Both the position numbers and the translations under genes were made by a program. Source: Methanocaldococcus indicus (GTDB lineage Archaea > AGJL01 > Methanococci > Methanococcales > Methanocaldococcaceae). From it: a stretch of 64,000 nt of DNA. The DNA is taken from positions 416,001-480,000 of the forward strand of contig NZ_CP186926.1 in the NCBI RefSeq assembly GCF_049554935.1. Reading direction: 5' to 3'. The notes under the pieces were generated by a model. That model saw only the letters and a program-made list of their open reading frames with translations, had not been told where the DNA came from and did no database searches. Positions 5,574 to 60,057 of this stretch are shown in pieces. Position 1 is the stretch's first letter, and the number at the start of each line of letters is the position of its first letter.

Positions 5574-5632
5574 TGGCTCAGTTCGGGTAAGTATCATCAT
5601 TAAATCAGTTAACCCTCTTATCATCATTGCCA
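5574..5632 (-). ncRNA. C/D-box methylation guide sRNA
   Basis: Minus strand: TGGCA-ATGATGA(C)-TAAGAGGGTTAA-CTGA(D')-TTTA-ATGATGA(C')-TACTTACCCGAA-CTGA(D)-GCCA; two 12-nt guides and a TGGC/GCCA terminal stem. Confidence 0.9.
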
Positions 5633-26403: not shown

Positions 26404-26602
26404 TATTTTCCAATTAATCCTAACTTAGCCAATAAAGCACTTAACTGAATTCTTTCATTTACCGCCGCATAGAGGCAAGGCCTCTATTGCTATACACCAG
26501 AGAGGGGTTGCTTTTGGGCAACCCCACTTTAAATATTAAGTATTTTATTTTCCAATTAATCCTAACTTGGCTAATAAAGCACTTAACTGAATTCTTTCAT
26601 TT
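26404..26602. repeat. 57-bp direct repeat of the rfcS 3' end flanking an 84-bp double-hairpin insert
   Basis: 26404-26460 vs 26546-26602, 2 mismatches; hairpins ATAGAGGC/GCCTCTAT (26469-26487) and GGGGTTGC/GCAACCCC (26504-26525). Confidence 0.9.
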
Positions 26603-29600
26603 GCTCCTTCAACTATTCTATAATCTGTTTCTCCTATTGCCTCAGCTATTTGAACTTTTTTCTTCTCATCTATATTTAGATTATTAATTTCTCTAAACAT
26701 TTGATTTAGAATATCTTCTCCACTCATACCCCACTCTAACATCAATTTGTATAATAAATCTCTTGCTTCATTGAATTTTCCTTCTAAGGCTAAATCCATC
26801 ATCTTTCTAACTTCTTCTGGTCTTGCCCTTGAAGAAACTTTGTATATAACTTCATCATCTATTACATCACTTATAGCAGAAGCAGTTTGTAGAACATTAA
26901 TTGCTTTTCTTAAATCTCCCTCAGAAACATAAATTATTGCATCTAATCCTTTTTCTGTTAATTTTAATCCTTCTTTCTCAGCAATCTCTTTTAATTTTTT
27001 AGCTATATCTTCTCTTTTCAATGGTGAGAATCTAAATATAGCACATCTTGATTGTATTGGTGGGATAATCTTGCTTGGATAGTTGCAGTTGTGGGATATT
27101 AACCCATTTGCTATAAAGGAGTGGTCTTTAAGGCATGTTATATCATACACATCTCTATAACCAATACACTCTTTTTTAATGATTCTTTCTGAAACATACT
27201 TTCCATCAACAACCTTTTCTTTTAAGAACTCTTCAAAGGTCATAAAGTTTCTTGGTAATCCAATGTCTTTTCCTTTAAGTTGATTTACTATAAAATCAAC
27301 TGGAATGTTATATTTCCTTGCTAATTCTCTTAGAGATTTTTCACCATCTACTTCTTTCAATGCCTTTTCAGCAATGTCTTTTAGGATTATATCTTTATAT
27401 GCTTCTTTGATTCTTAAATACTCTCCAACCAACCTTGCAAAGTTGTCTTTTTCATAGGCATAGGATATTCTTGATAAATATTTGAGATAGTTTTTATTGT
27501 TTGCTTTAACTATCAACTCAATTAAGTTTTTGTTATCAATTTTACTAACTCTAATATCTGCCTCAACTTCAAATTCCTTCAACATTTTTCTAATGTCTTC
27601 AAAGAACTCTAATGTTTTATATTTACTAATATTTTCAACTCTTATACCTAATTTAATTCCATTTATGTTATATTTTTTAATGTATGGTTTAGTTCCATCA
27701 GCTCCAAATAATCCTCTTAAAAACTCTCTCTTAACAAATTTATTTCCATATTTTATCCATTTTGGAATATTGTAGCCATTTATAGTTTTATTTCCAATTT
27801 CTACTCCCCAGAAGTTTAACAATAGATATAATGCTTTATTATCAATGTATATGAATGATGTTTTCCCTTTAATTTCTCTACCATCTAAGTTATGATTAAT
27901 ATCTTTTTCAATTATATTTGATGATTTTATGCCTAATTTCTCTAAATCCTTCTTAATTTCTTCAAGTTCATTTATTGTAGCAGTTATTAATATTCTTCCT
28001 TCTTTTGATTTTGATAAATGCCCATCTCCAATTATAAAGCCTAACAACCTTGCAAATATTCCTGCTTTCTCATCATCATAAGTTATCTTATCCCATCTAA
28101 GTTCTTTGATTTTCTTTATGTATTTTAAAGCAAATCCATTAATTTTTCCATCAATAAGATTTTTTATAGTTGTTAATGATATTTTTATCCCAAATTCTTC
28201 CTCAATCTTTCTTTTAATCTCTGATTTGTTGTATTTTCCTGATAACTCTAAAACTCTATTTAATATTTTTTCTTTATCTTTTGTTATTAATTCTTTATAG
28301 GTTTTTGCTTTATCATAAGGTTTATATCCAATTTTAAGCTCATATTTTGTTAAAAACTCATAGAACTCATTTAAGTTAATTATCTTCCTATTATCAACTT
28401 CAAACTCAACTCCTTCCAATGCTGGATAAACCAATATCCCATCATCTTCCTTTAACTCATAAACCTCCTTCCACCCATATCTTGTTAAAAACTTGTGGTC
28501 TCCTGTTGCCTCTATCTCTCTACCACTTTCTAAAACTAATCTATAAACCTTATGATTTACTATCTTTGAATTAAATTTAACTCCTGCTAAAACTAAATCT
28601 TCTCCACTTCTATTTAAAACATGTTTAATTTTTCTTTTTTCAAACATTTTTATAAAGTCCTCTATCTTTATCTCCCTCTCATCTGGAAGAGTTATTTTTG
28701 CATCTCCTGTTAAACAACTTAAGATAAATCTACATACATCTGAATACTTCTCCATTGTTCTTCTTAAAGCATTTTGAGCATCTGCTGTTAGTGCATCACT
28801 CTCATCTAAGAATATTATCTTAAATGGAACATCTCCAATTGGCTTAGTTCTTGCAAATTCTTTTACTTTTGTCCTAATAACGTCTATACCTCTTTCATCT
28901 GAATTATGTAACAATATTGGCACATTTCCTGCAAAGAACATTTCATTATTTGGAACTGACACATCATAAACAAAGTCATTGTAGTCAATAACTTCAATCT
29001 CTTTAACAATCAAAGCATGAATCTCTGTTTCAGATAATTTTTGTAATAAATTGTAAATCTTTCTTTCTACATCAGTTAATTTCTCAACATCAACCATTTC
29101 TAAAATCTGCTTAATTTTGTCCTTTGAAACTCTCTTTTTATTTTCATAGAGTTGGTGTCTTAATATATATCTCCAATTTCCTTTTATCTTACTATCTAAC
29201 TTTTTAATCATTTTAATTATTGGCTCACTTGGTAATAAATTGCCTTTCTTCCATCCCATTTTTCCTTTCCAAATTAATCTTACCTCATTTTCAAATATTG
29301 AACTTTCAATTCCAGAAATTCTTGCTAACCATGCTGTATCTATTAATAAATTCTCGGATTTTGATGATATTCTAACAACTCCTCCCCAATTTCCACTGCC
29401 ATCTCCATCAGCCAATCCTTTTAAAAATTCAACTCTTAAATTTTCTTTTAACTCATATACAATATCTGGAATTCTTTTATCTCCTGCTTTTCTTCCATTT
29501 CCATTGTAGAAGTTTTTCTCAATAAATTTTGCAAGTTGAGTATTTAATATTCTAATCTGCTTAGCAGATAATCTTTTTCTATCAAATCCAGAACCTGTGA

Positions 29601-42368: not shown

Positions 42369-45300
42369 ATGAAGAAAGTTTTTAGCATTTTAAAGGATAT
42401 AGGTATTGATGAGCTTAGACCTCCTCAAAAAAAGGCTATTGATTTAGGAATATCAGATAAAAATAAAAATTTTATAATTTCAATTCCTACAGCATCTGGG
42501 AAGACATTAATTGGGGAAATAGCTTTAATAAACCATCTTTTAGATGAAGACAAGAAACCAACAGGTAGGAAAGGGATTTTTATAGTCCCTTTAAAGGCAT
42601 TAGCTTCTGAAAAATATGAAGATTTCAAAAATAAATATGAAAAATTTGGACTAAGAGTTGCTTTATCTATTGGAGATTATGATGAAGATGAAGATTTAAG
42701 CAACTATCATCTAATAATTACAACTGCTGAAAAACTTGATTCTTTATGGAGGCATAAAATTGATTGGTTAGATGATATATCTATTGTAGTTGTAGATGAG
42801 ATTCACTTAATCAATGATGATACAAGAGGAGGAACATTAGAGATTTTATTAACAAAACTAAAAAATTTAGATGTTCAAATTATTGGCCTATCTGCTACAA
42901 TTGGCAATCCTCATGAATTAGCCAATTGGTTAAATGCTGAACTTCTCTTAGATGATTGGAGACCAATAGAGTTAAAGAAAGGAATTTATAAAAATGGAGA
43001 AATTGAATATATAAATGGGGAAATTAAGAAGATTAATGAAAAAGGAGATGATATATATAAGTTAGTTGTTGATTGTGTAAAAGATGGAGGAAGTTGTTTA
43101 GTTTTTTGCAATACTAAAAGAAATGCTGTTAATGAAGCCAAAAAATTAGATTTAAGAAGATATTTAACAGAAGAAGAAAAAGAGAAATTAAAAAAGATTG
43201 CTAATGAAATACTATCTATTTTAGAGCAGCCAACTGAGTTATGTAAAACATTAGCCAACTGTATTTTAAAAGGAGTAGCTTTCCATCATGCAGGACTAAC
43301 ATATCAGCATAGGAAAATTGTTGAAGAAGCTTTCAGAAAGAGGTTAATTAAAGTTATATGTTGTACTCCAACACTATGTCTAAATGCAAACACTGAAATA
43401 CTGCAGGAGAGTGGATTTAGAAAAATCACAGATTTAAACAAAAATGAAAAAGTTTTTGCACTGTGTGGAAATGAAATAAAACCAATAGATGGTTGGAAAG
43501 TTCATAGAACACCACAACATCCATATAACATTGTTGTAAAAACAGTAAATAGTTTGAAAATTACCACAACTCCAAATCATATATTTTTGGTTAAAGAAAG
43601 TGGTCCTTTAAAAGAAAAGGAAGCAAAAGATTTAAAAGTTGGGGATTATGTAGCAACTGTTGATAGAATAAGAGTTAAGGAGAAAAATATAGGACTATCT
43701 TATGGAGACCTTTACTTTATTGGATACTTTATAGGTGATGGTTATACAGGAGTTATAAAAAAAGATGTATTTAATGGTAGCCCTGACCTTGCATTTAATC
43801 CAAAGTATCCACCAAATTTTGATGATTCTGAACTTCACAAAAAATATTTTTTGAAATGTAGAGTATCTAATGGTGTTGCTCATTATAGGTATTCAAAAAA
43901 ACTAAGAAAACTCTTTAATAAATTAAATTTACTTACAAAAGATAACAAAAATATTGATGTATTTTGTAACCTTACATTGGATAAGCTATCATATCTTATT
44001 GCCGGTTTATTTGATAGTGATGGATATGTAAATTCAAATGCAAAATATATTGAATTTTATTCGATATCTGAAAAGTTGGTCAAACAATTACAATTTGTAT
44101 TGTTAAGATTTGGTATTCATGCCAGTATTAGAAAAAAGAAAACTGAAACTATAACATCTCCAACAAATGGAAAAGAATACAAATGTAAAGATATTTATGT
44201 ATTGTCAATTAGAGATTTTATGAGTATAAAAAGATTTTATGAAAATATTCCATTAAGACATGAAGAGAAGAGAAAAAAATTAGAAAAAATTGTAAAAAGT
44301 AAGGAAATTGCTAAAATATGGTGTGATTGTGGATTTAGTGTTGATTTAACTATGTTTAAACCAAGAACTAAAAGGCAGAGAGAATTAAATAAAAAGCGTG
44401 TAAAATTACTTTTTGAGCTGTTAGATGGGAAAAAGTTAATTACAAACTATGAAGAGTATTTCTCAAAAAGAAAAAATCCACATTTTGAATTTATTGTAAG
44501 AGAAAATGTTGGTGGTAATAAAAAAGGAGTATATTATTCTCTAAATAATAAAGGAAAGATTTTAATGAATCTTCTTAATAAAAATATCGAAAATAAAAAT
44601 AATTTAGATGAGATATATAACTTTTTGGTAAATCTTAAAAATTGCCCGATTTGTGGAAAACCAATTCATAAAGTGATAAGACATAGCTGGAAAAAAGAGT
44701 GCTATGATGGAGACATTTATTGGGATAAAATTAAAGAAATTAAAAAGATAAAAGTAAATGACAAATATGCTTATGATATAGAACTGCCTGATGATGGATT
44801 GAATAGTCATTATATTGTAGCAAATGGATTTATAGTGCATAACTCTGCTGGACTTAATGTTCCATGTAGAAGAGCTATAATAAAAGATTTAAAAAGATAT
44901 ACAAATGAAGGAATGAGATATATTCCAATAATGGAAGTCCAGCAATGCATAGGAAGAGCTGGAAGACCAGGATATGATGAGTATGGAGAAGGAATAATTT
45001 TAGCTAAAAACAATAGAGATTATTTAAGAGCTATTCAAATATTGACTCAAAATCCTGAACCAATATATTCAAAACTCTCCAATCAAGCTATTTTAAGAAC
45101 TCAAATTTTAGGTTTAATAACAACAGGAGAAGTTTTAGATGAGTATGATTTAGAAGAGTTTATTAAAAATACATTTTATGCTCATCAGTTTGGAAATTTA
45201 GATTATGTAATTGAAAATATTAAGGAGGTTATAAGATTTTTAGAAGAGAACAATTTTATAAAAAATTTTGTCCCAACAGAATTAGGAAAAAGAGTTTCTG

Positions 45301-45887
45301 AGTTATATATAGACCCATTATCAGCTAAGTTTATAATAGATGGATTAAAAAAAGATATTAAAGATGAACTCTACTATCTCTATTTAATATCTAAAACTAT
45401 AGAAATGAGACCTTATCTAAGAGTTTATAGGAATGAAGAGTTTGAACTAATCAATGAGATGAGAAATTATAACATTGATTTTATTGAGTATGAGGACTTA
45501 GAGGCTTTTAAGACAGCTAAAATGTTATATGATTGGATTAATGAACTTCCAGAAGACAAAATTTTAGAAAAATATAAGATTGAACCAGGAATTTTGAGGT
45601 ATAAGGTTGAGAATGCAATATGGCTTATGCATGCAGTAAAAGAAATATCTAAAATAATTGGAAAAGATACAGAAATTCCTGAAAAGTTGGAGATAAGATT
45701 GGAGTATGGAGCTAAAGAGGATATAATTGAACTTTTAAAAATAAAACATATAGGTAGAGTAAGAGCAAGAAAGCTATACAATGCAGGTATTAAAAGTGTT
45801 GAAGATATTATAAACAATCCTAAAAAAGTTTCTTCTATAATTGGAGAGAAGATAACTAAAAAGATTTTAGATGAAATTGAATTATAA
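42369..45887 (+). CDS. hel308: Hel308/Hjm SF2 DNA helicase with one intein
   Basis: PTASGKT, DEIH, SAT, FHHAGL, PTL|..|SAG, GRAGRP, HhH tail. Confidence 0.95.
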   Translation: MKKVFSILKDIGIDELRPPQKKAIDLGISDKNKNFIISIPTASGKTLIGEIALINHLLDEDKKPTGRKGIFIVPLKALASEKYEDFKNKYEKFGLRVALSIGDYDEDEDLSNYHLIITTAEKLDSLWRHKIDWLDDISIVVVDEIHLINDDTRGGTLEILLTKLKNLDVQIIGLSATIGNPHELANWLNAELLLDDWRPIELKKGIYKNGEIEYINGEIKKINEKGDDIYKLVVDCVKDGGSCLVFCNTKRNAVNEAKKLDLRRYLTEEEKEKLKKIANEILSILEQPTELCKTLANCILKGVAFHHAGLTYQHRKIVEEAFRKRLIKVICCTPTLCLNANTEILQESGFRKITDLNKNEKVFALCGNEIKPIDGWKVHRTPQHPYNIVVKTVNSLKITTTPNHIFLVKESGPLKEKEAKDLKVGDYVATVDRIRVKEKNIGLSYGDLYFIGYFIGDGYTGVIKKDVFNGSPDLAFNPKYPPNFDDSELHKKYFLKCRVSNGVAHYRYSKKLRKLFNKLNLLTKDNKNIDVFCNLTLDKLSYLIAGLFDSDGYVNSNAKYIEFYSISEKLVKQLQFVLLRFGIHASIRKKKTETITSPTNGKEYKCKDIYVLSIRDFMSIKRFYENIPLRHEEKRKKLEKIVKSKEIAKIWCDCGFSVDLTMFKPRTKRQRELNKKRVKLLFELLDGKKLITNYEEYFSKRKNPHFEFIVRENVGGNKKGVYYSLNNKGKILMNLLNKNIENKNNLDEIYNFLVNLKNCPICGKPIHKVIRHSWKKECYDGDIYWDKIKEIKKIKVNDKYAYDIELPDDGLNSHYIVANGFIVHNSAGLNVPCRRAIIKDLKRYTNEGMRYIPIMEVQQCIGRAGRPGYDEYGEGIILAKNNRDYLRAIQILTQNPEPIYSKLSNQAILRTQILGLITTGEVLDEYDLEEFIKNTFYAHQFGNLDYVIENIKEVIRFLEENNFIKNFVPTELGKRVSELYIDPLSAKFIIDGLKKDIKDELYYLYLISKTIEMRPYLRVYRNEEFELINEMRNYNIDFIEYEDLEAFKTAKMLYDWINELPEDKILEKYKIEPGILRYKVENAIWLMHAVKEISKIIGKDTEIPEKLEIRLEYGAKEDIIELLKIKHIGRVRARKLYNAGIKSVEDIINNPKKVSSIIGEKITKKILDEIEL
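43377..44843 (+). mobile_element. Intein in Hel308 (489 aa), LAGLIDADG plus Cys-pair insert
   Basis: PTL|CLNA...IGYFIGDG...AGLFDSDG...CDCG...CPICG...VHN|SAG. Confidence 0.92.
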
Positions 45888-47198
45888 AATTTTGAATTTT
45901 CTTTCCCCATCATTTAAAATTGTCCAAATTGGATGATAGATACATTTATAAATTTCTCTTGCAAAATTTAAAAATCCTTCAAATCCAGTAAATGGATAGA
46001 AATCTTGTGGAAATGATAAAAAAGGAATTCCATATTTAACTGCCATATACTTCTCTTTAGTTCCTCCAATAAATATATCAGGTTTTTTATGTTTAAATAT
46101 TAATTCTAAATCTATTTTTGATGCATCATCTACAAAAAGAGTATTGTCTTCTACATTTCTATAAGCCTCTATATAATCTTCCAAATCACCAAATTGTGAG
46201 CCAATAGATATAACTTCCATTCCTAAATCTTTAAAAGCTGATGATAACATACCAATTTTTGAAGCTCCCATAAAAATACCTACTTTTTTTCCATTTAGTT
46301 TTTCTATATAAAAATCTAATTTATCCTTTATCTTTTTAGTTTCATTGTCAATAATCTCTTTTCCAACTTCTTTAATTTTAAAGAATTTAGCTATCTTCAT
46401 TATAGAATCTATTGTATTACTTAAACCTATGAATGAAACATTTAATTTTGGAATTCCATACTTTCTTTCCATATATTCAGCAATATACTTCCCAGTTCTT
46501 TTACAATGCACAAGATTTAACTTAGCATTTTTAGCATTTTTTATATCTTCAACAGAACAATCTCCTGTAAATGTTGCTATAACTTCAATTCCCATCTTAT
46601 TTAATATATCCTTAATTACTCTTGTTTCATTACTAATATTATATTCACCAATAATATTAACTGTGAGCTTGTCTCTAAATTCATCTTTAAATTCTCCTTT
46701 ATCTATTAATTTAAATATTGAAATTATTGCAATTTCATGACCTTTTGATTGATGATATCCACAAAATCCAGGACAAAATATAGGAATCACTGGAATATTT
46801 AAAGATTTTTCAGCATCTTCACATATCTTTTTGATATTATCTCCAATTAGAGAAGATACACATGTCGCATAAACAAATATAGTATCTCCTTTTAGTTCAT
46901 TATAAGCTTCTATTATTGTATCATAAAGTTTTTTTTCACAACCATATATTACATCAATAGTTTCCATATCAGTAGATACAATATTATATGATTTTTTTCT
47001 TACATTTTGGCCATAAAATGCACATCCAATAGGAGAATGAATTATATGAATAGTATTTTTTATTGGAGCTAATATCCATCTTACTCCATAATATGGACAA
47101 CTCCTTTGTGTAATACTTCCAGGAGAAGACTTTTTATTTGTTGTAGGAAGTCCATATTTTTTTAAAGTAATTTTATAAGGAAGGACTCTTATTTTCAT
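45882..47198 (-). CDS. nifE: NifE-like nitrogenase cofactor scaffold
   Basis: RSCPYYG, HSPIGC, TCVSSLIGD, VHCKR; lacks the FeMo-co His ligand region of NifD. Confidence 0.75.
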   Translation of the reverse strand: MKIRVLPYKITLKKYGLPTTNKKSSPGSITQRSCPYYGVRWILAPIKNTIHIIHSPIGCAFYGQNVRKKSYNIVSTDMETIDVIYGCEKKLYDTIIEAYNELKGDTIFVYATCVSSLIGDNIKKICEDAEKSLNIPVIPIFCPGFCGYHQSKGHEIAIISIFKLIDKGEFKDEFRDKLTVNIIGEYNISNETRVIKDILNKMGIEVIATFTGDCSVEDIKNAKNAKLNLVHCKRTGKYIAEYMERKYGIPKLNVSFIGLSNTIDSIMKIAKFFKIKEVGKEIIDNETKKIKDKLDFYIEKLNGKKVGIFMGASKIGMLSSAFKDLGMEVISIGSQFGDLEDYIEAYRNVEDNTLFVDDASKIDLELIFKHKKPDIFIGGTKEKYMAVKYGIPFLSFPQDFYPFTGFEGFLNFAREIYKCIYHPIWTILNDGERKFKIL

Positions 47199-47833
47199 AC
47201 TATCTCCTTTTTTAATATGTTTATTAACAAACTGTAATCTTTAAAATTCTCATCAGGAGGATGTAAAATATACAAAGAACCATTTTTGAATATTTTAATA
47301 CCTAAAATATCTCCTTCATTATTGAGAAGTATTGGCCTGTAATCAAGATATTCATAATCACAAATTAATGATAATGTATCTACCAATCCTAACTTACCAT
47401 TTTCATCATTAACTTCATATATATGGGAATATTCCTTAATCAGCTCAGAATATGTTGGTAATTCATTGGATATAATATCAGTTCCCTCCTTATCTTTAAC
47501 AACAAATGTGTCTCTAACTAAATGTTTCATTAAGTAGTGTTCCATAATTCTGCCTTTTGAGATATTTTTGAAATATGGGTCAATAACTACAACATTTGAG
47601 CCATTTTCTAATATTTCCTTTATTTTTATGTCTTTTAGTATTGTAATAACACTTGATTGATTTGCTGAATAAGAACTTAAATTTTTAAAAAATAGGGGCA
47701 TATACACAATAGTTAAATCATATTTTGCAATATCTATTTGGTTAAATGGTATGAATAAACAATCTTCAGCATCATAAGAATCCACATTATTAATTTCTTT
47801 TCCTAAGAATAGAACTTTCATATTATTCACCAT
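47195..47833 (-). CDS. Hypothetical protein coupled to nifE
   Basis: 212-aa ORF overlapping the nifE start by 4 bp. Confidence 0.65.
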   Translation of the reverse strand: MVNNMKVLFLGKEINNVDSYDAEDCLFIPFNQIDIAKYDLTIVYMPLFFKNLSSYSANQSSVITILKDIKIKEILENGSNVVVIDPYFKNISKGRIMEHYLMKHLVRDTFVVKDKEGTDIISNELPTYSELIKEYSHIYEVNDENGKLGLVDTLSLICDYEYLDYRPILLNNEGDILGIKIFKNGSLYILHPPDENFKDYSLLINILKKEIV

Positions 47834-47836
47834 TTA

Positions 47837-47850
47837 GGAATTAGGTTACC
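47837..47850. promoter_or_regulatory. NrpR-like operator (1 mismatch)
   Basis: GGAA-TTAGGT-TACC vs consensus GGAA-N6-TTCC. Confidence 0.6.
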
Positions 47851-47877: not shown

Positions 47878-48072
47878 TTACTCTTCTAAGATAATTGCAT
47901 TAGTAGGACAAACATCTTTACAAACTCCACAAAGAGTACATTCTTCTTCTCTTGCTACAACTACTTTATCTCCTTGAATTTCAAAAACTTCCATAGGACA
48001 GTTATTTACACATTCTGCACAATCTGGACCTCTGCATAAGTCATAGTTTATTTGTATAACCAACAATACCAC
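47878..48072 (-). CDS. 2[4Fe-4S] ferredoxin
   Basis: CRGPDCAECVNNCP and CTLCGVCKDVCP. Confidence 0.9.
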   Translation of the reverse strand: MVLLVIQINYDLCRGPDCAECVNNCPMEVFEIQGDKVVVAREEECTLCGVCKDVCPTNAIILEE

Positions 48073-48331
48073 CTAATGAGAATCTAATTTTCAAAGCAAT
48101 CATTTTTAGAATGTTAATGAATCTGTCCAAATTTAAATTAATATGTATATAGTTAAAGTCATAAGGAATGTCATAGGAATTATAAACCATTATTCTGTCT
48201 CCTTTCTTTATATTATTAGGAACTGGAACATTTATTTCTCTAACTACACCATCTATTTCAATTAGGGGAACTTTTAAATTATTATTTACAATTTTAAATC
48301 CTCTAAATGTCCCAATTTTACCATAACACAT
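48041..48331 (-). CDS. Small nif-operon protein, HypC/HupF-like
   Basis: MC N-terminus; IDGVVREIN...IKKGDRIMVY resembles HypC GVxREV...VKVGDYVLVH. Confidence 0.5.
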   Translation of the reverse strand: MCYGKIGTFRGFKIVNNNLKVPLIEIDGVVREINVPVPNNIKKGDRIMVYNSYDIPYDFNYIHINLNLDRFINILKMIALKIRFSLGGIVGYTNKL

Positions 48332-48333
48332 AA

Positions 48334-48663
48334 TTACTCACTCTCCCTAACTTTAAATAACCAATCTATATTATATTTTTTTAATTCATCTTTTATAAAT
48401 TCTATTATATCATCTGGAACTCCATATTTTTTCAGGTCTTCTACATTTTCAAGTTCTTCAGGTTTTCCATATCCACTTTCTATCTCATCTATTAAATATT
48501 TAGCAACTATCCCAGGAATATTTTTAACTTTCACTGCTTCAAAAAGTATAGAATTCTCATGAGGAATTTTATCTTCCTTTATGTAGAATACTATACAATG
48601 GAAATCATCACCTTCAACAATATTCCCATATTCATCATATTTCTTAAATTCAACTATCATCAT
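48334..48663 (-). CDS. Hypothetical acidic protein in the nif operon
   Basis: 109-aa ORF abutting the nifK stop. Confidence 0.65.
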   Translation of the reverse strand: MMIVEFKKYDEYGNIVEGDDFHCIVFYIKEDKIPHENSILFEAVKVKNIPGIVAKYLIDEIESGYGKPEELENVEDLKKYGVPDDIIEFIKDELKKYNIDWLFKVRESE

Positions 48664-48664
48664 A

Positions 48665-50059
48665 TCACTGTTGTTTTTGGTCCCATGGTATTTGTGTATC
48701 TAATATAGTATTAACTATATCATCAAATAATCTTAAACTACCCATATATCCAACTATTGGCCATCTAAAATGCCCTACTCTATCATAAATTGGAAATCCT
48801 ACTCTTACTAAACCAATATTTAAGTCATCTGCTAACCTTTTTCCACCTCTTGGATGACCAATTAATAAATCAACTCCTATCTTTTTAACAGATTTTTCAA
48901 AGTCCCATAAATCAGAATATTGCACTTCTATGTCTATATTATATTTTTCTGCTATCTTTTCCATATCTTTTTTGTAAGTTGTAGATGGAGTTTGAGTATT
49001 TACAACTACTGGTTTTAGTCCCATCTCACATGCAAATCTTGATAATGCAACTACAAAATCTGGGTCTCCAAATATTCCAACCTTCTTGTCCATTGTATAA
49101 TGTACTGTATCAACAATTGCATCTATTAATTTACCTCTTTCATCTAACAATTTATCAGGAATGTCTAATCCAGTTATCTTTGCAATATTGATAATAAACT
49201 CATCAGTATTCTCTATCCCTATTGGTAATCCATAATATACAGGAATTTTGTATCTTCTTTGTAAGAATAAAGCTCCTCCACCTCCAGCATGTCTGCATAA
49301 TACAAATATTGCCTTAGCATTTATTAACTCTTCAAATTCTTCAACTTTTGTTCCACCTTTTGGATAATATGGAACCTCTTTTATTGGCTCTCTTAAAGGT
49401 TGATATAAGGTCTCTGAAATATCAAATAAAACTGAATAATCTTTTCCTTCTTTTAATTCAAACATTTCAAATATTCTTTTTATTTCTAAAATGTCTCCAG
49501 GATTTACTCCAAATCCAGGAACTATAAATATTTTCCCATCTTTATCTTCATCTCTTTTTTTTCCAGCTGTAAAGTATTGGAAGAATGCTTTAACAGCATT
49601 ATCATATCCTTTTACATGACTTGATTGATATGATGGACAATGAACTGGAATTATTGGCAGTTTTGCTTTTTCTTCTCCAAATTCTTTAGCTATCTTCTTC
49701 CTAGCAGCTCTAATAAATGCTTCTATGTCATCTCCAATTGTTTCAGAGGAACATGTTGTAACAACTGAAATTAAATCTGGATCATATCTTGCTACTAAAT
49801 TTCTAATTCCCTCAACTAAATTCCTCATTCCTCCATATACTGCTGCATCTTCATGAAATGATGCAACTGCAATAGTTGCTGGTTCTCTAAAATGTCTATT
49901 AAATGTATATCTTACATAAGTACAACAACCTTGAGAACCTTGAACAAAAGGAATTCCCCTATGAACTCCTAAGGTTGCCCACATTGCACCAATTGGTTGG
50001 CATGTTTTGTTTGGGTTTATAGTCCCTGCTCTCTGTTTTTCAACATAAGTAATTCCCAT
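48665..50059 (-). CDS. nifK: Nitrogenase component I beta subunit
   Basis: INPNKTCQPIGA, GSQGCC, TTCSSETIGDD, GFPIYDR; ATG 50059 follows GGTGA. Confidence 0.95.
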   Translation of the reverse strand: MGITYVEKQRAGTINPNKTCQPIGAMWATLGVHRGIPFVQGSQGCCTYVRYTFNRHFREPATIAVASFHEDAAVYGGMRNLVEGIRNLVARYDPDLISVVTTCSSETIGDDIEAFIRAARKKIAKEFGEEKAKLPIIPVHCPSYQSSHVKGYDNAVKAFFQYFTAGKKRDEDKDGKIFIVPGFGVNPGDILEIKRIFEMFELKEGKDYSVLFDISETLYQPLREPIKEVPYYPKGGTKVEEFEELINAKAIFVLCRHAGGGGALFLQRRYKIPVYYGLPIGIENTDEFIINIAKITGLDIPDKLLDERGKLIDAIVDTVHYTMDKKVGIFGDPDFVVALSRFACEMGLKPVVVNTQTPSTTYKKDMEKIAEKYNIDIEVQYSDLWDFEKSVKKIGVDLLIGHPRGGKRLADDLNIGLVRVGFPIYDRVGHFRWPIVGYMGSLRLFDDIVNTILDTQIPWDQKQQ

Positions 50060-50081
50060 AAATATCACCAAAAAATTAAAT

Positions 50082-51512
50082 TTAAGAATTTTTCTTAAAT
50101 TCTTTGAATTTTTCTTCACCTTCTTTTAAAATATTCCAAATTGGATGATAAACTGCTTTATAAATATCTCTTGCAAAATTAACAAATCCTTTGAAGCATG
50201 CATAGGGTCCTTGTTCATAACTGTGAGAGTTAATTGTTGGAACTCCATACTTTCTAAATAAATATCTCTCTTTCAATCCTGTAAGCATGAAATCTGGTTT
50301 GTATTTAGCCACTGCTTCCTCTAATTCTAATTCATTTGGAGCATCAATAACCAAAGTTCCTTTTAGTCCAGCCTTTTTTAAGTTTTTATTCAACTTTTCA
50401 TAATCATCTTCATGTGCAAATGTACAACATGCTACTACAACATCTATTCCCAACTCTTTCATAACTCTAATCCAATGCCATGTTCTTGGACCTCCAACAT
50501 AAATTAGACATCTTTTTCCTTCTAATTTAGATTTATAAAACTCTAATTGTGGCTTAATAGCTTCTAATTCTTCTTCTATAACTTTCTCTACCCTATCCAT
50601 TGGAATTCCTAATACTTCGGCAGTTTTTCTTAAAGCCTCAGCTGTTTGTTCTATTCCAAAGAGTGAAACCCAAATTTTTGGAATATTGAAGCCATCTTCT
50701 ATCAATTCAGCAATATAGTTGGCAGACCTTTGACAATGGACAATATTTAATTTAACATCTGGTAATTTGAATAAATCATCTAATGATGCATTTCCAGTAA
50801 ATACAGCTACAATTCTACATCCAATTTTTTCAAATAACTCTTTTATAACTGCAACATCCCAATCCATATTGTAATCTCCAATTATTGCAACGTCATAAGG
50901 AGTTTTTTCTTCCTCTTTTAAACATTTTTCTGGATATCTTTCTCTTGCTTTTTTTAGCCATCTATAAAATGATATATTAAAGACGTGATGTCCTTTTGAT
51001 TGTGAAACTCCTGCATATCCTGGACAATTACATACAAATACTGGTTTTCCTATTTTTTCTTCTACTTTTCTTGCTACTGCATCTAAATTATCTCCAATTA
51101 GTCCAGAAGTGCATGTAGCATAAATAAAAATACCTTTTGCTTCTGGAAATTCTTTTATAGCTTCTAAACATGCCTTTTCTAATTTCTTTTCACCGCCATA
51201 AACAACATCAGCCTCTTGCATATCTGTTGTAAAGCAGTATCTTCTATGTAGTTCATTGTCTGACAGATTTCTTCTTGTTCCCCATGTGTAATATGCACAT
51301 CCAACTGGTGAATGAACCATATGAATAACATCTTTTACAGGCCCACCTACGACTCCTCTACTTCCTGCAAAGGAACAACCTCTCTCAGTTAAATCTCCTG
51401 GAACTGTTTTAATATTACATGCAGGAATTATTTCCTCCTCTGGGTCATAAATGTAGGTGTGTTTCATTCTTTCAGGGATTGGTTTGTCACAATCTAACAA
51501 AACAAATGGCAT
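50082..51512 (-). CDS. nifD: Nitrogenase component I alpha subunit
   Basis: RGCSFAG, HSPVGC, TC, GVSQSKGHH, VHCQRS, NSHSY (cofactor Cys and His ligands present). Confidence 0.95.
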   Translation of the reverse strand: MPFVLLDCDKPIPERMKHTYIYDPEEEIIPACNIKTVPGDLTERGCSFAGSRGVVGGPVKDVIHMVHSPVGCAYYTWGTRRNLSDNELHRRYCFTTDMQEADVVYGGEKKLEKACLEAIKEFPEAKGIFIYATCTSGLIGDNLDAVARKVEEKIGKPVFVCNCPGYAGVSQSKGHHVFNISFYRWLKKARERYPEKCLKEEEKTPYDVAIIGDYNMDWDVAVIKELFEKIGCRIVAVFTGNASLDDLFKLPDVKLNIVHCQRSANYIAELIEDGFNIPKIWVSLFGIEQTAEALRKTAEVLGIPMDRVEKVIEEELEAIKPQLEFYKSKLEGKRCLIYVGGPRTWHWIRVMKELGIDVVVACCTFAHEDDYEKLNKNLKKAGLKGTLVIDAPNELELEEAVAKYKPDFMLTGLKERYLFRKYGVPTINSHSYEQGPYACFKGFVNFARDIYKAVYHPIWNILKEGEEKFKEFKKNS

Positions 51513-51540: not shown

Positions 51541-51927
51541 TTAATTTCCTATAGCTTCTTCTCCAAATTCTCCAGTTCTAATTCTAATAGCTTCTTCTGT
51601 AGGTATAACAAATATTTTTCCATCACCTGGCTTTCCTGTCCTGTTTATTTTTGTTATAATGCCTATAACCAATGGAACATCTTCATCATTTACTACAATT
51701 GATAACATTCTTTTTGGAATATATTTTATTTTTAGCCCTAATTTTTCACCTTCTTCTATTATTTTTTCTTTATCAATTCCTTCTGGAAGATATGCATCAA
51801 TATAACCTTTTTCTTTTCCTCTACCAAAACATTTAATAATCGTTAAAGCAGGAAATCCAACAGCTTCAAGTGCTTTAACTGTCTGAGATACTTTATTAGG
51901 TCTAATAATTGCTAAAATTTCTTTCAT
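51541..51927 (-). CDS. nifI2: PII-family nitrogenase regulator NifI2
   Basis: AIIRPNK, GRGKEKG, GDGKIFV; position after nifI1. Confidence 0.93.
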   Translation of the reverse strand: MKEILAIIRPNKVSQTVKALEAVGFPALTIIKCFGRGKEKGYIDAYLPEGIDKEKIIEEGEKLGLKIKYIPKRMLSIVVNDEDVPLVIGIITKINRTGKPGDGKIFVIPTEEAIRIRTGEFGEEAIGN

Positions 51928-51931
51928 TTTC

Positions 51932-52249
51932 TCACAACTCTTTACTTCCAGTTCTTATAGTATAGACCTCATCAATTGGCTGTATGAAAATTTTTCCATC
52001 TCCATAATTTCCAGTGTGTGCATTAGTTTTTATAATATTAACAACTTCATCAACTTCATCATCATTAACACCAATCAGCAACAAAGTTTTTGGAAGTTCA
52101 TCATAAAATATCTCTCCAATTTTTATTCCCCCTTGTTTTCCTCTACCAACAACATCAATCTTTGTAAATGATGGATATCCTGCTTTTTCTAAGGCATCTA
52201 TTACATCATCAGTTTTTTCAGGCCTGATAATAGCTTTTATTAGTTTCAA
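51932..52249 (-). CDS. nifI1: PII-family nitrogenase regulator NifI1
   Basis: AIIRPEK, GRGKQGG, YDELPK, GDGKIF; TTG start after AGGTGA. Confidence 0.93.
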   Translation of the reverse strand: MKLIKAIIRPEKTDDVIDALEKAGYPSFTKIDVVGRGKQGGIKIGEIFYDELPKTLLLIGVNDDEVDEVVNIIKTNAHTGNYGDGKIFIQPIDEVYTIRTGSKEL

Positions 52250-52259
52250 ATTTTCACCT

Positions 52260-53120
<861 letters not shown>

Positions 53121-53146: not shown

Positions 53147-53226
53147 GGAAGCTTATTTCCTATTGACAATAATATTATTGTCAATAATTAATATATAAAG
53201 TTTTCGGTAATAAGAAACTTTATTCC
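53147..53226 (-). promoter_or_regulatory. nifH promoter: NrpR operators, 26-bp palindrome, TATA/BRE
   Basis: GGAA-GCTTAT-TTCC (53147-53160); TATTGACAATAATATTATTGTCAATA (53161-53186); minus-strand CCGAAAACTTTATATAT (~53191-53207); AGAA-ACTTTA-TTCC (53213-53226). Confidence 0.8.
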
Positions 53227-53745: not shown

Positions 53746-54789
53746 TTAGTTTTGTATAACAACAGAAGAAGATATTGATATTTTAACTCTCATTCCTTTC
53801 CTTAGATTCATCCTATTAGCTTTTGACCTTATAACTTCACAAATTAGTTCTACACCATCAACATCTAAAATAGCTCTAACAGTTGATAAACTTAGATGAT
53901 ATACATCAACTATCTTTGCATCAAATAGATTGTATTTATTATAATGATATCTACATCCTTTTTCTCCTACTAACATAATATCCTCAGGTCTTATGGCTAA
54001 AATTGCATCTCCTTCATTATAAGGCTCATTGAGATAGATATCTAAACCCCCTCTAAAAATATATTGGTTATCTTCTTTCTTAATTTTTCCTTTTAAGAAG
54101 TTCTTATATCCAACAAATCTTGCAACAAATTCGTTTTTTGGATTAGTTATGATATCATCTATTTCCCCAAATTGTTCAATCTTTCCATTTCTTATTATTG
54201 AGAGTTTATTGGCTAATGCTATAGCTTCAATGAAGTCATGAGTGACATGAATAAATGTAATATCAGTATTACTATGAAGTTTTTTTAGTTCCAATATTAA
54301 ATTTTCATGAGTTAATCTATCCAATGCATTTAATGGTTCATCTAATAAAATAACCTCTGGCTCTACTACTAATGCTCTGGCCAAAGCTACTCTTTGCTGT
54401 TCTCCATTACTTAGTGTATTAGGCTTTCTATCTAAGAGATGAGTTATATTTAGTTGCTCAGCTATTTCATAAACTTTTTCTTCTCTTAATTTTTTGTCTT
54501 TTATTCCAATTCCTATATTTTCCCTAACATTTAAATGGGGAAATAGATATTTTCCATGACACATTACTATTTTTCTTTTGTTTAATGGTGTATCTGTTAT
54601 ATCTTCTCCATTTAAGTAAATTCTTCCATCATCAGGTTTTCTGAATCCTGCTATAATTTCTAATAAAGTAGTTTTTCCACTCCCACTCGGTCCTAAAACA
54701 ACAAAATAATCATTTTTATTTATTGTGAGTTCATCAATTTCAAGTGTAAAATATGCTAACTTTTTTTTTAGGTTATCTATTGTTAGCAT
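53746..54789 (-). CDS. modC: Molybdate/tungstate ABC ATPase with TOBE domain
   Basis: GPSGSGKTT, LSNGEQQR, LLDEP, HVTHD; C-terminal TOBE. Confidence 0.82.
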   Translation of the reverse strand: MLTIDNLKKKLAYFTLEIDELTINKNDYFVVLGPSGSGKTTLLEIIAGFRKPDDGRIYLNGEDITDTPLNKRKIVMCHGKYLFPHLNVRENIGIGIKDKKLREEKVYEIAEQLNITHLLDRKPNTLSNGEQQRVALARALVVEPEVILLDEPLNALDRLTHENLILELKKLHSNTDITFIHVTHDFIEAIALANKLSIIRNGKIEQFGEIDDIITNPKNEFVARFVGYKNFLKGKIKKEDNQYIFRGGLDIYLNEPYNEGDAILAIRPEDIMLVGEKGCRYHYNKYNLFDAKIVDVYHLSLSTVRAILDVDGVELICEVIRSKANRMNLRKGMRVKISISSSVVIQN

Positions 54790-54791
54790 AA

Positions 54792-55508
54792 TTATCTACC
54801 ATATATACAAAATCTTTCTAAGTTCAATAATTTAGCCAATCCTGCTATAGAAGTGCCATAGAAAATAATTTTTTTATTGTATTTTTTGGCTAAATTGAAA
54901 ATATCTTCAAAAGTTCCATTAACAATTGTTGAACCAGTAGCTAAAATAACATCTGAATTTTTTATTAAATCTTCATTATACTTTCCATGAATAATTTTAG
55001 CTCCATATTTTATTTTTCCAATATTTTCAGGATTCAAATCACTAACTATAACATTTTCAGTTCCAAAGTTATTAACAATCTCTTTAACAAATGCAGGTTG
55101 GAAGCCTATAATCCCTATTTTTTTTGGTTTTAGTTCTTTTAAATATTTAACCAATTCTTTTGCACATTTTTCTGGTTCATCTCCAGTGCAATGAACTGTC
55201 TTATCCACAAAATTTAAATATCTCATAACTGCATTTATAGCAGCTATTAGCTCTGCTCTATTTCCATTTTTTATTAGCTCTTCAATAGTTCCCACAAACT
55301 CTTTTGGTTTATCTGTGAATGCATCCCCATAACAGCCCTTAAAATTAGCTCTCAATAAAACTTCTTTTCCACTCATTAGTGGATAATCTCTTATTTTGGA
55401 TATATCTAACTTGGTATCTGCTATCTTAATCTCAATTTCCTCATTTAGTAGATTGTTCTTTTCTGCAAGTTCTTTTAGTATCTCCCTAAAATCCATAATT
55501 AACACCAT
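54792..55508 (-). CDS. DUF364-like Rossmann-fold protein
   Basis: AAINA, KIGIIG, DVILATGSTIVNGT, YGTS. Confidence 0.7.
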   Translation of the reverse strand: MVLIMDFREILKELAEKNNLLNEEIEIKIADTKLDISKIRDYPLMSGKEVLLRANFKGCYGDAFTDKPKEFVGTIEELIKNGNRAELIAAINAVMRYLNFVDKTVHCTGDEPEKCAKELVKYLKELKPKKIGIIGFQPAFVKEIVNNFGTENVIVSDLNPENIGKIKYGAKIIHGKYNEDLIKNSDVILATGSTIVNGTFEDIFNLAKKYNKKIIFYGTSIAGLAKLLNLERFCIYGR

Positions 55509-56287
55509 TTATATGATAATATAAGTTTTATTAGTAAGATAACAAAAATAGCAATAATAATATGAATTATAGCAATACACAAAGCTAAATTTATATTACA
55601 AATTGAGAAATTAAGAAATATGGCAATTGGTAAAGTTTCTGTTTTCATTTTTATAGCTCCAGCAATCATTAGAGTAGCTCCAAACTCCCCAATAGCTCTT
55701 GCCCAACCTAAAACAATTCCTGCAAGTATTCCACTTTTTGCCATTGGTAAAGTCACTTTTAAGAAAGTTTCCCATCTACTTAATCCTAAACTTTGGGCAA
55801 TATATTCATACTTAATGTCAATGTTTTCAAATATTGCTCTTGTTGTTTTTATTATAAATGGAGTGGCAATAATAAACTGTGCTAAAACTATTCCTGTAGG
55901 ATTAAATAAAAAATTGATTAAATTGTTAGATATCCACTTACCAAAAATGGTATTTCCTAAAAATAATAGAAGACCAAAACCTAAAACTAATGGAGGTAAT
56001 AATATAGGTATATGTATCAAACTATCTAAAAGTTCTTTTCCTCTAAACTTGAATCTTGCTAAACTGTATCCAGAAGGCACTCCAACTAATAAAGAGAATA
56101 ATATTGCAATAATAGATGTTTTTAAACTTAAAGTAGCTGAAAATAATACTTCATTAGAAAATAGAGCATCTATAAAGTTATTTAATGATGTATTCAATAG
56201 TATTGCGAATAAGATAGCAAATAATATAATTGAAAAAAAAATTAATGGCATATTTATAATATATACAAATTCTTTGTCTTTGAACAT
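55499..56287 (-). CDS. modB: Molybdate ABC permease
   Basis: PILLPPLVLG, AQSLG, WARAIGEFGAT. Confidence 0.87.
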   Translation of the reverse strand: MFKDKEFVYIINMPLIFFSIILFAILFAILLNTSLNNFIDALFSNEVLFSATLSLKTSIIAILFSLLVGVPSGYSLARFKFRGKELLDSLIHIPILLPPLVLGFGLLLFLGNTIFGKWISNNLINFLFNPTGIVLAQFIIATPFIIKTTRAIFENIDIKYEYIAQSLGLSRWETFLKVTLPMAKSGILAGIVLGWARAIGEFGATLMIAGAIKMKTETLPIAIFLNFSICNINLALCIAIIHIIIAIFVILLIKLILSYKWC

Positions 56288-56295
56288 AACTATCC

Positions 56296-57063
56296 CTAAA
56301 TGACTTCAAATCCATATTTTTTAAATATCTTCTTTCCATCTGTTATTACAAAATTGTAAAATTTCTCAGCAGCTTCTTTATTTTTAGTTGTGGATAGTAT
56401 TGCTATTGGAATAGTTTTTATAACATTGTATTTTGGAGATATATCAATTATATCCACTTTATCCTTGTTCTCAATTGCATCTGCCCTCCAAACAATTGCA
56501 GCATCTACTTGTTTCTCCATAACATAAAATAAAACTTGCTTTACAGTAGCTCCTTTTACAACTACATTTTTATTGATTTTTTCTGAAATTCCTGGATAAT
56601 CTTTGTCTAACTTTTCAAATATCTTATTAGTTGCTCTACCAATTGCAATATTACTATCTCCTAATGCTATTTTCACACCTGGTTTTGCTAAATCAAGTAT
56701 TGAAGTTATATGTTTTGGATTCCCTTTTTGTACAACAATAACAGGAATATGCTTTGTTATGTTTGTATAGTTCAGAATCATACCTTTCTTTTTTAACTCA
56801 TTTACATAGTATAAAGCCCCTGGCATAAAGATATCTCCACTTTTTGAGCTTAAAATTTGAGAATATAAATATCCACTTCCTGCATAGGTATATTCAACCT
56901 TTATTCCATACTTTTTCTCAAAAAGCTTCCCAATTTCATCCATTGGCTCTTGCATTCCAGCTCCAACATATGCATGTATTACCTCTTTTGAATTTTCTTT
57001 ATTTGTGCATCCACAAATGCTAACTAATAAAAGTATGGGAATAATGATTAGAATTTTTTTCAT
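56296..57063 (-). CDS. modA: Molybdate-binding lipoprotein
   Basis: Lipobox ICGC; YAGSG..QI, GDIF, KGNPK, AIGR, VDAAIVW. Confidence 0.87.
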   Translation of the reverse strand: MKKILIIIPILLLVSICGCTNKENSKEVIHAYVGAGMQEPMDEIGKLFEKKYGIKVEYTYAGSGYLYSQILSSKSGDIFMPGALYYVNELKKKGMILNYTNITKHIPVIVVQKGNPKHITSILDLAKPGVKIALGDSNIAIGRATNKIFEKLDKDYPGISEKINKNVVVKGATVKQVLFYVMEKQVDAAIVWRADAIENKDKVDIIDISPKYNVIKTIPIAILSTTKNKEAAEKFYNFVITDGKKIFKKYGFEVI

Positions 57064-57096
57064 AATCTCACAAAGAAAATTTTTATAACATTTATA

Positions 57097-57173
57097 GGAA
57101 TTAGGTTTCCTACTTCCTAAATATATTATAGAAAACTATATATAAAACTTACGGTATAAGGTAAGATAGTTCC
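57097..57173. promoter_or_regulatory. modA promoter with paired NrpR operators around the TATA box
   Basis: GGAA-TTAGGT-TTCC (57097-57110); minus-strand TTTTATATAT (~57138-57147); GGTA-AGATAG-TTCC (57160-57173). Confidence 0.75.
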
Positions 57174-57921: not shown

Positions 57922-58623
57922 GAGAGTGTCAAGTTAAGCTTTTATTAATAATTGATAAAAAATAATAAAATATGAAGCTCACGATAGAAGTCTTAAAGGA
58001 GAGAATCGAAGAGGAGAAGATTTTTAAAAGGAATAAGAAGTCGATAGAAGTTAAAATCTTAGCTGGGATTTTGTATTATCTTGGACTATCGTTGAGGAAG
58101 GTAAGTTTGTTTCGTTCCCAATTCGAAAGTATAAGCCATGAGTCGGTTAGGACTTATTATCACAAGATTAAAGATGTTTTAAACGAACCTGAAAGAAAGG
58201 AAAGATACGCAATTGCAATCGATGAGACCAAACTAAAGATTGGAAATGAAAATATTTACGTATGGTCTGCTATTGATGTTGAATCGAAAGAGTGCTTGGG
58301 AGTTTATGTTTCTGAAACAAGAAACTGCCTCGATACTATATTATTCGTTAAGAGTATATTAAAATTTTGCTCTAATAAGCCGAAGATTTTGGTCGATGGT
58401 GGAAGATGGTATCCGTGGGCATTGCAAAGATTGGGTTTAGAATTTGAAAGAGTCAGATTCGGACTGAGAAATTGTGTAGAAAGCTTTTTCTCACTACTCA
58501 AACGAAGAACTAAAGCATTTTATAATAGGTTTCCTAATAACAGCAAATTCGATACAGTTGTTAGCTGGATTAAAAGTTTCATGATGTTCTACAATTGGTT
58601 GAAGTCGTTAACTTGACAGTGTC
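57922..58623 (+). mobile_element. IS6-family insertion sequence (~700 bp)
   Basis: Terminal inverted repeats GAGAGTGTCAAGTTAA / TTAACTTGACAGTGTC (14/16) around the transposase; no target-site duplication seen. Confidence 0.88.
57972..58616 (+). CDS. IS6-family DDE transposase
   Basis: [26 protein letters not shown]; codon usage differs from the host (many CG-containing codons). Confidence 0.92.
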
Positions 58624-59064: not shown

Positions 59065-60057
59065 ATGAAAATAACTAAGCTTCATGGTGCTGGAGGAACT
59101 GTAATGCAACAACTAATTAAAGATTTAATTTTAAACAATATTGAGCTAAAATCAGCTGGTTCTTTGTCTTTGGATGATTTAGATGATTCATCAACTATAA
59201 AAATTTTTGATAATGAAATAGCTCTAACAACTGACAGCTATACTGTAAATCCTATATTTTTCAAAGGAGGAGATATTGGTAGATTAGCTGTCTCTGGGAC
59301 TGTTAATGACTTAGCTGTTGTTGGTGCTAAACCATTAGCTTTAACACTCTCATTCATACTTCCTGAAGGTTTTGAATATGAAAAGTTAGAGAGAATAGTT
59401 AAATCAATAAATGAAACATCTAAAGAAGCAGAAGTCCCTATAATAACTGGGGATACAAAAGTATCAGATAGTGTTAATGATATTGTAATAAATACATCTG
59501 GAGTAGGGATAGTTAAAAAGCTTTTAAAGGATAGTAATGTTAAAGAAGGAGATGCTATAATAATATCTGGAAATATAGCTGAGCATGGATTAGCTATTCT
59601 ATTGGAAAGAGAGGGCTTTGAATTTGAGACAAATATAAAATCTGATGTCTCTCCACTAAATAAGATGATTGAGGAAATTTTAGATTTAGATATTCATGCA
59701 ATGAAAGACCCTACAAGGGGAGGAGTAGCTAATGCACTAAATGAATTAGCAGAGAAGAGTAATATAGGAATTGTTATAGAGGAAGATAAATTACCAATCA
59801 GTGAAGAAGTTAAAGGTTTGTGTGAAATATTGGGATTAGACCCATTAACAATAGCAAATGAGGGAAAGGTTATTATAGCAGTTAATAGAGATGATGCAGA
59901 AGAGTGTTTAAGAAGATTAAGAAAAACAAAATATGGAAAAAATGCTGAAATAGTGGGATATGCAACAAAGGAACATAAAGGAGTATTGCTTGATACTGGT
60001 ATTGGTAAGAGAATTATTGACTCTCCAATTGGAGACCCAATACCAAGAGTGTGCTGA
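59065..60057 (+). CDS. hypE: Hydrogenase maturation factor HypE
   Basis: HGAGG, TTDSY, GTVND, DPTRGG, ANEG, C-terminal PRVC. Confidence 0.97.
   Translation: MKITKLHGAGGTVMQQLIKDLILNNIELKSAGSLSLDDLDDSSTIKIFDNEIALTTDSYTVNPIFFKGGDIGRLAVSGTVNDLAVVGAKPLALTLSFILPEGFEYEKLERIVKSINETSKEAEVPIITGDTKVSDSVNDIVINTSGVGIVKKLLKDSNVKEGDAIIISGNIAEHGLAILLEREGFEFETNIKSDVSPLNKMIEEILDLDIHAMKDPTRGGVANALNELAEKSNIGIVIEEDKLPISEEVKGLCEILGLDPLTIANEGKVIIAVNRDDAEECLRRLRKTKYGKNAEIVGYATKEHKGVLLDTGIGKRIIDSPIGDPIPRVC

Follow-up and report, generated by a model that had tools for sequence, protein, structure and literature searches.

HypC and HybG (PF01455, TIGR00074) are proteins of 80–100 aa that carry the Fe(CN)2CO group in [NiFe]-hydrogenase maturation, and they combine a Met-Cys start with a small OB barrel lacking a capping helix and with a C-terminal helix. 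In passages of published work, Cys2 of HypC and Cys41 of HypD are described as binding Fe, possibly with the help of His51 (PMC12134894, PMC11565642), and Cys2 as being needed for binding of the apo-large subunit (PMC12134894). HoxL of Cupriavidus necator and HupF of Rhizobium leguminosarum are HypC paralogues that occur beside a normal HypC and bind apo-large subunits. HoxL is described as handing the Fe group to apo-HoxG, and every client of the HypC family named in the same passages is a hydrogenase or its scaffold (PMC12134894); published passages also present HoxL as essential for its hydrogenase.

On the nitrogenase side, Lie et al. (2022) reported that in Methanocaldococcus FS406-22 nifK is followed by hp1, hp2, hp3 and fd, and nifE is preceded by hp4, and the passages of that paper dealing with Hp2 state that no motif or homology was seen (PMC8809328). 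According to the same source passages, replacement of hp1-hp2-hp3-fd by a marker left diazotrophic growth unimpaired and shortened the lag, which the authors ascribed to saved expression cost; the four genes were deleted jointly, hp2 was never removed singly, and the deletion phenotype belonged to hp4. Passages of PMC13554218 report that only NifI1,2 co-purified with native NifDK of M. infernus and still list the nif accessory genes of hyperthermophilic methanogens as unknown in 2026. The gene hp2 and its null phenotype are already known, and what is added here is its likeness to HypC. We found no description of this likeness in the open-access literature searched: HypC is unmentioned in PMC8809328, PMC13554218 and PMC9765008, and the likeness was likewise absent from passages of PMC3534401 and bioRxiv 10.64898/2025.12.07.692841. 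The initial annotation knew of no described case, which agrees with this search as far as the likeness is concerned, but the gene itself is in print and its four-gene deletion was harmless on N2 in the passages cited above.

The window (the whole stretch of 64,000 nucleotides that was analysed) contains an operon of the order nifH-I1-I2-D-K-hp1-hp2-fd-hp4-nifE (Table 1). The site before nifH matches what we take to be the NrpR operator consensus, and at the position equivalent to the one-mismatch site ahead of hp4-nifE, locus L048 has a perfect operator-like site. A scan for sigma-70 promoters gave a chance-level result, the sigma-70 model being unsuited to archaea. Immediately upstream of nifH, modABC-like transporter genes with DUF364 occupy 53746-57110, with an operator-like site at 57097-57110. 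Elsewhere in the window were an IS240-type transposase (57972-58616), hypE (59065-60057, assigned by AIRS domains and its N-terminus) and intein-bearing genes (26545-32076, 5624-9373, 42369-45887), of which the RFC small subunit contains three inteins, DNA polymerase B one and the Hel308-like helicase one. Neither nifN nor a PF02579 (NifX/NafY) gene was found in this genome, which is 99% complete.

Table 1. Genes and operator-like sites of the nif operon, with positions in the window.
Feature	Position	Strand	Remarks
nifH	52260..53114	minus	
nifI1	51932-52267	minus	PII regulator
nifI2	51541-51927	minus	PII regulator
nifD	50082..51512	minus	
nifK	48665..50119	minus	likely start ATG 50056
hp1	48334..48663	minus	109 aa
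hp2	48041..48331	minus	96 codons, Met-Cys start, TGA stop, 96-aa protein
fd, 2[4Fe-4S] ferredoxin	47878..48063	minus	likely start TTG 48063; longest ORF from 48072
hp4	47195..47833	minus	likely start ATG 47821; 212-aa ORF
nifE-like gene	45882..47198	minus	
GGAA-N6-TTCC site	53147..53160		before nifH
Operator-like site, one mismatch	47837..47850		ahead of hp4-nifE, with TATA-like element

The third ORF before the nifE-like gene corresponds to hp2 in nif operons of the Methanocaldococcus type, as judged from the gene order in relatives, the start of hp1 in Fig. S5 of Lie et al. (2022), which agrees with the 109-aa family, and an identity of 45% over 93% to P0011, named in its source as a protein of Methanocaldococcus sp. 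FS406-22. It is the second hypothetical gene past nifK and is limited to the nif clusters of thermophilic methanogens, the feature that defines hp2. In FS406-22 the same gene has the same place in the nifHI1I2DK operon, after hp1 and before hp3 and fd, whereas hp3, a stand-alone ATP-cone protein (Pfam E 1e-12) located behind hp2 in four of the 10 carrier genomes, has been lost in the present genome at 48041-48072. Because of this loss, hp2 overlaps fd. The overlap is 32 nt when counted from the first ferredoxin GTG and would likely be 23 nt, since the TTG start agrees with the starts of homologous ferredoxins and is preceded by a GGTGG ribosome site. The neighbouring hp1, whose stop lies 2 nt before the start of hp2, is named nifX in Methanothermococcus papers and has no homology to M. 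maripaludis NifX; it was present in 15 of the 19 nif-positive Methanococcales genomes, was never found in a nif-negative one, and was missing from the four genomes with a true NifX-family gene in the operon.

The minus-strand reading of the ORF reproduced the residues quoted in the initial annotation, and the Met-Cys ORF overlapping the ferredoxin gene is as it had been described there. A chance ORF was ruled out because orthologues were found in nine other genomes by the Methanococcales genome search, dN/dS in codons 1–58 was 0.07–0.38 (for the 16 pairs out of 45 whose pS was < 0.6, the rest being near saturation), a GGTG-type ribosome site was present at 8 of 10 hp2 genes and Cys2 was encoded by both codons (TGT in four, TGC in six). 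Codon comparison thus indicated that hp2 is under purifying selection. The encoded protein consists of a small OB barrel (residues 1–55), an aromatic motif YNSY-x-F-x-Y-x-F and a basic amphipathic C-terminal helix.

Among 40 Methanococcales genomes (a phylum-wide search gave the identical 40), 19 carried nifK and were counted as nif-positive. Hp2 was present in 10 of these and absent from all 21 others, and the location inside the nitrogenase operon claimed by the initial annotation held in 10 of 10 genomes; nine nif-positive genomes were without hp2. One of the nif-negative genomes (G007) is only 86% complete and carries hp4, and may therefore possess a nif operon that was not assembled. The gene followed hp1 directly in seven genomes and nifN directly in three. 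All seven metagenome loci were also nif-linked, one of them via a probable chimeric ORF with a NifN-like end. A triosephosphate-isomerase-like ORF with a NifN-like end (L117:1011-1712) and a nifEN-type operon joined to an hp2-hp3-fd-hp4 tail (L119:27-5407) are both possibly chimeric assemblies. When 5.8 billion proteins were searched with a profile, 26 Hp2 proteins with lengths of 45–179 were retrieved and no match between E 7.5e-17 and 10. A single-protein search of 1.84 billion proteins returned four family members and, at E 0.001, no fused forms; a word-based search returned Hp2 itself as the sole match, and plasmids gave no match.

This distribution bears on the proposal of the initial annotation that Hp2 compensates for missing NifN, NifX or NafY, that is, replaces one of them in FeMo-cofactor assembly or delivery. 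All seven nif-positive genomes without nifN carried hp2, as against 3 of the 12 with nifN, although kin are not independent in these counts, and the present genome, which has neither nifN nor a PF02579 gene, would suit such a role. However, hp2 coexists with nifE and nifN in three genomes, standing right behind nifN, eight of its 10 carriers also possess a PF02579 gene, and four nif-positive genomes (two of them incomplete) had neither hp2 nor a PF02579 gene. Moreover, passages of PMC8809328 show hp2 to be dispensable in a strain without nifN. The loss of nifN was tracked more closely by hp4, which was present in 7 of 7 nif-positive genomes that lack nifN, was absent from all 12 that have it and is a better candidate for a NifN-replacing factor; it had no match in Pfam or NCBIfam. 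Given the distributions of nifN, hp4 and PF02579, Hp2 is not a dedicated stand-in for NifN or NifX; an essential replacement is largely refuted, and a replacing role of any kind appears highly improbable. As to the arrangement of hp4 and nifE in other genomes, the pair lies distant from nifHDK-hp1-hp2 in G016 (G016:C1:844321-846254) and on a separate contig in G038 (G038:C119:227-2324), and in G032 a frameshift or an assembly error has divided nifE into two ORFs (L058:7423-8774).

The fold was predicted with two AlphaFold models built from 13- and 25-row alignments (pTM 0.49 and 0.54). Both contained four confident strands in residues 4–50 (pLDDT 80–94), a weakly modelled stretch at residues 51–70 (pLDDT ca. 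63, no fifth strand modelled) and a helix. As modelled, Hp2 is a small OB barrel followed by a helix, as in HypC. In Foldseek searches, HypC structures took ranks 1, 3 and 15 with the first model and 2, 5, 6, 7 and 12 with the second, interspersed with ribosomal L2-type OB domains; ranks 1–2 had E values of 0.098–0.12, and no match reached E 0.001 for either model. VIA-align placed residue 1 of Hp2 onto residue 1 of HypC 3d3r with Z 4.5 (rmsd 2.8, 49 aligned) and Z 5.0 (rmsd 6.7, 66 aligned), and proteasome ATPase OB domains reached Z 5.5–5.7, a tie within 1. The HypC-like fold asserted by the initial annotation was thus borne out as a fold class, but the modelled structure by itself does not pick out HypC among short OB barrels. 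Sequence searches of the PDB returned weak rows only, with HypC at E 0.56–1 beneath biotinyl/lipoyl domains and chance matches; since the two models both resemble OB barrels, we discarded a lipoyl-type fold.

By family-defining tests, Hp2 fails membership of the HypC family. It scored 12 bits against the HypC Pfam model (cut-off 28.5), PF01455 gave weak matches to 7 of 13 members (best E 0.0067) and TIGR00074 matched 2 of 26 (best E 0.15). Nevertheless, several comparisons suggested that Hp2 probably descends from HypC as a diverged offshoot. Hp2 aligned without gaps from Met1 to Tyr52 with Methanococcales HypC, in the register of HypC/HybG with Gly-Asp at 43–44, and the commonest residues were common to both at Met1, Cys2, Lys19, Glu24, Gly27, Val40, Gly43, Asp44 and Tyr52; the invariant Gly4 and Gly7 of Hp2 match E. 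coli HypC and HybG. When a Hp2 profile without Met-Cys was scanned over 381,829 subsequences (2,532 ORFs of this genome), HypC at offset 0 was the best non-self match (30.7 vs. 23.3). In the same genome, hp2 was the second-best match to PF01455 (E 0.3) and hypC the second-best match to the Hp2 model (E 0.014). In an ESM feature search HypC was the family common to the top ten named matches (score 0.80), which is a lead only. Against the descent, hhalign reached only 40–69% with three HypC sets, and in the tree of Hp2 and HypC the branch between them was saturated and no donor was visible. The HypC-type OB pattern read by the initial annotation was upheld as far as the register is concerned; its exact GVVRE is peculiar to this copy, relatives having NGEIRE, NGNISE or GGNILE.

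The HypC origin had been put forward in the initial annotation as the recruitment of a hydrogenase-maturation fold, and register and fold speak for it, but it has a real rival. Hp2 might instead be a freed OB domain akin to a 178-aa membrane OB protein encoded in the fdhC-carbonic anhydrase-fdhA operon of Methanococcales. In that case the basic helix of Hp2 would keep it at the membrane, it would act as a ligand-binding protein or a protein adaptor, and its Met-Cys start would be coincidental. Among profiles, the Hp2 barrel scored highest with that protein (91.7% in hhalign over 38 columns; the profile had only five rows, all chosen as top weak matches), which also had a higher end-to-end z than HypC (6.2 vs. 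4.5) and HMM bits of 16–18, equal to those of HypC; Gly7, Lys19, Pro21, Pro35, Gly43-Asp44, Tyr49 and Tyr56 are in common, and the amphipathic basic tail of Hp2 would suit a membrane-held domain. It was not found in the present genome and therefore was no competitor in the scan of 381,829 subsequences. In contrast to Hp2, its OB domain is internal, behind two N-terminal hydrophobic segments, has no N-terminal Cys, carries an extra last strand and stands in a formate context; the N-terminal membrane segments and the final KPKI-x-GIG strand were found in 0 of 26 Hp2 sequences. Derivation from it would require gaps of one and four residues, the loss of both the last strand and ca. 95 residues from the N-terminus, and a Met-Cys that had arisen by chance precisely at the HypC position, a start found in 11 of 1,145 long ORFs of this genome (ca. 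1 in 100 genes). With ESM and Foldseek also favouring HypC, we consider this origin quite unlikely. Genes for this membrane protein (L074:1123-1659 and relatives) occurred in 15 of 40 genomes. They are flanked by a formate/nitrite-type transporter gene on one side and a carbonic-anhydrase-like gene on the other, ahead of fdhA, with the neighbours assigned from sequence.

A further clue, which favours the hypC locus over the formate operon, came from the ferredoxin gene that hp2 overlaps. The product of fd was 83% identical to the ferredoxin encoded beside hypC in this genome (the hypC-side ferredoxin), followed by the next match at 45%. This ferredoxin gene adjoins hypC in 22 of 30 loci and is convergent with it in 19 of the 22, and all seven nif ferredoxins fell within the hypC-side ferredoxin clade (support 100/97). 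As far as these comparisons go, the data fit a copying of the hypC-ferredoxin neighbourhood, and recruitment of the ferredoxin alone would also be possible. At the DNA level, fd was 92% identical over 181 nt to the hypC-side gene (G000:C1:1043187-1043367; L045:1782-1979). The nif copy resembled its hypC-side counterpart more than it resembled the nif ferredoxins of relatives, which suggests a recent gene conversion or replacement between the two loci.

The residues kept and changed were examined against this background. Cys2, whose retention the initial annotation had pointed out, is the sole conserved Cys of Hp2 and was present in 25 of 26 sequences (Phe in P0022). Equally, the reported replacement of His by Tyr was general: the HypC His column (His49; His51 in E. 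coli) was Tyr in 25 of 26 Hp2 and His in 120 of 120 HypC sequences. HypC Ala4, Pro6, Gly51 and Ala53 were substituted in Hp2, with Ile, Val or Met at position 6, where 14 of 14 diverse HypC/HoxL/HupF rows have Pro. The C-terminal helix of Hp2 is variable, basic and amphipathic (median charge +3), whereas that of HypC is acidic (median −8). Phe12, Pro21, Glu31, Pro35, Asn50, Tyr56 and Phe58 were newly invariant and point to a new binding surface. One branch of the family (P0010, P0013-P0015, P0021, P0023, P0024, P0026) has additional Cys residues in the first hairpin, at position 16, position 18 or both.

A parallel to this pattern is found among the HoxL/HupF proteins. Like Hp2, they begin with Met-Cys-x-Gly and stand beside a normal HypC, and the present genome likewise has a separate, normal hypC elsewhere. 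The C. necator paralogue, which we take to be HoxL from gene order, its record being of the HypC/HybG/HupF family, has Phe at the HypC His column, where Hp2 has Tyr. A late chaperone that retains Cys2 but not the His is thus known as a precedent, since the protein at the HoxL position has Phe and HoxL is described as passing on the Fe group. Unlike Hp2, HoxL and HupF are encoded in hydrogenase operons, have kept Pro6 and are annotated family members, and Hp2 differs from HypC/HybG by its nif context and sub-cut-off scores.

Hp2 could also be a HypC paralogue that still serves hydrogenase, binding one [NiFe] large-subunit precursor under nitrogen starvation (e.g., that of Eha or Ehb, the suppliers of reduced ferredoxin) and speeding or throttling its maturation. 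The known HypC paralogues are hydrogenase-specific in the passages available, the genome has four large-subunit loci for one hypC and one hypD, the protein at the HoxL position shows that loss of the His is compatible with large-subunit binding, and the nif operon includes a ferredoxin that belongs to the hypC-side clade. However, Pro6, which is common to all the HypC, HoxL and HupF rows, is lost, the tail is basic instead of acidic, and no conserved linkage of hp2 to hyp or hydrogenase genes was seen: no conserved neighbourhood with hypE or hypD was found, and hypD lay 2.6 kb from hp2 in one genome only (G032). It should be added that the true hypC of Methanococcales is likewise not part of a hyp operon. 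The deletion without phenotype (in passages of PMC8809328) also speaks against a hydrogenase role, which we regard as unlikely.

Our preferred, though tentative, reading is that Hp2 is a non-essential, HoxL-like Cys2 chaperone for immature nitrogenase proteins. The gene, its conservation, its nif linkage, its fold class and its residue changes are observed, and from there we infer ancestry, client and metal handling. According to this proposal, a copy of hypC would have moved into the nif operon in an ancestor of thermophilic Methanococcales, and its product would have given up the HypD scaffold job to act as a late chaperone of an immature metalloprotein in the manner of HoxL/HupF. Under nitrogen starvation hp2 would be induced together with nifHDK, Met1 would be removed, and the OB barrel would dock via its new aromatic surface onto apo-NifDK or NifE(N), where the free N-terminal Cys2 would enter the empty cluster site and either shield its cysteines or deliver Fe; the basic amphipathic tail would possibly tether the protein. 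Under some form of stress, such as iron limitation, top temperature or oxidants, Hp2 would allow more mature nitrogenase to be formed, and it would be dispensable in rich laboratory medium. The late-chaperone reading is weakened by the harmless four-gene deletion, by the nine nif-positive genomes without hp2 and by the co-purification of only NifI1,2 with NifDK.

The shortened lag of the four-gene deletion would also fit a regulatory brake of whatever origin, with Hp2 acting together with Hp1 and the ATP-cone protein Hp3 to bind nif mRNA or a nif protein and damp nitrogenase synthesis at low energy. OB barrels with aromatic and basic surfaces commonly bind nucleic acid, and among the 10 carriers hp1 stands directly before hp2 in seven and hp3 after it in four. 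Nevertheless, 6 of 10 operons are without hp3, a brake has no need of a conserved N-terminal Cys, and the authors' own explanation of the lag, in passages of PMC8809328, is the saved cost of expression. We therefore hold such a brake to be improbable.

The weight of the finding is limited, since hp2 occurs in a single order and laboratory growth does not depend on it. In its boldest and more doubtful form, the chaperone reading would make Hp2 the first HypC-family protein recruited from hydrogenase to nitrogenase maturation, an N-terminal-Cys metallochaperone that shields or loads cluster sites in apo-NifDK or NifE. It would do so in those minimal nif systems that are the most heat-stable and that do without NifW, NifZ, NafY and other such bacterial chaperones. 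The nif operon of hyperthermophilic methanogens serves as a model of the minimal nitrogenase gene set and as a source of parts for the engineering of N2 fixation. HypC ancestry would single out Cys2 for mutation, Fe as the ligand to seek and two short lists of partners, and with them provide a first testable idea of the function of Hp2. If nitrogenase is the client, Hp2 would represent a crossover of two metallocofactor assembly lines, of which we found no description in the literature.
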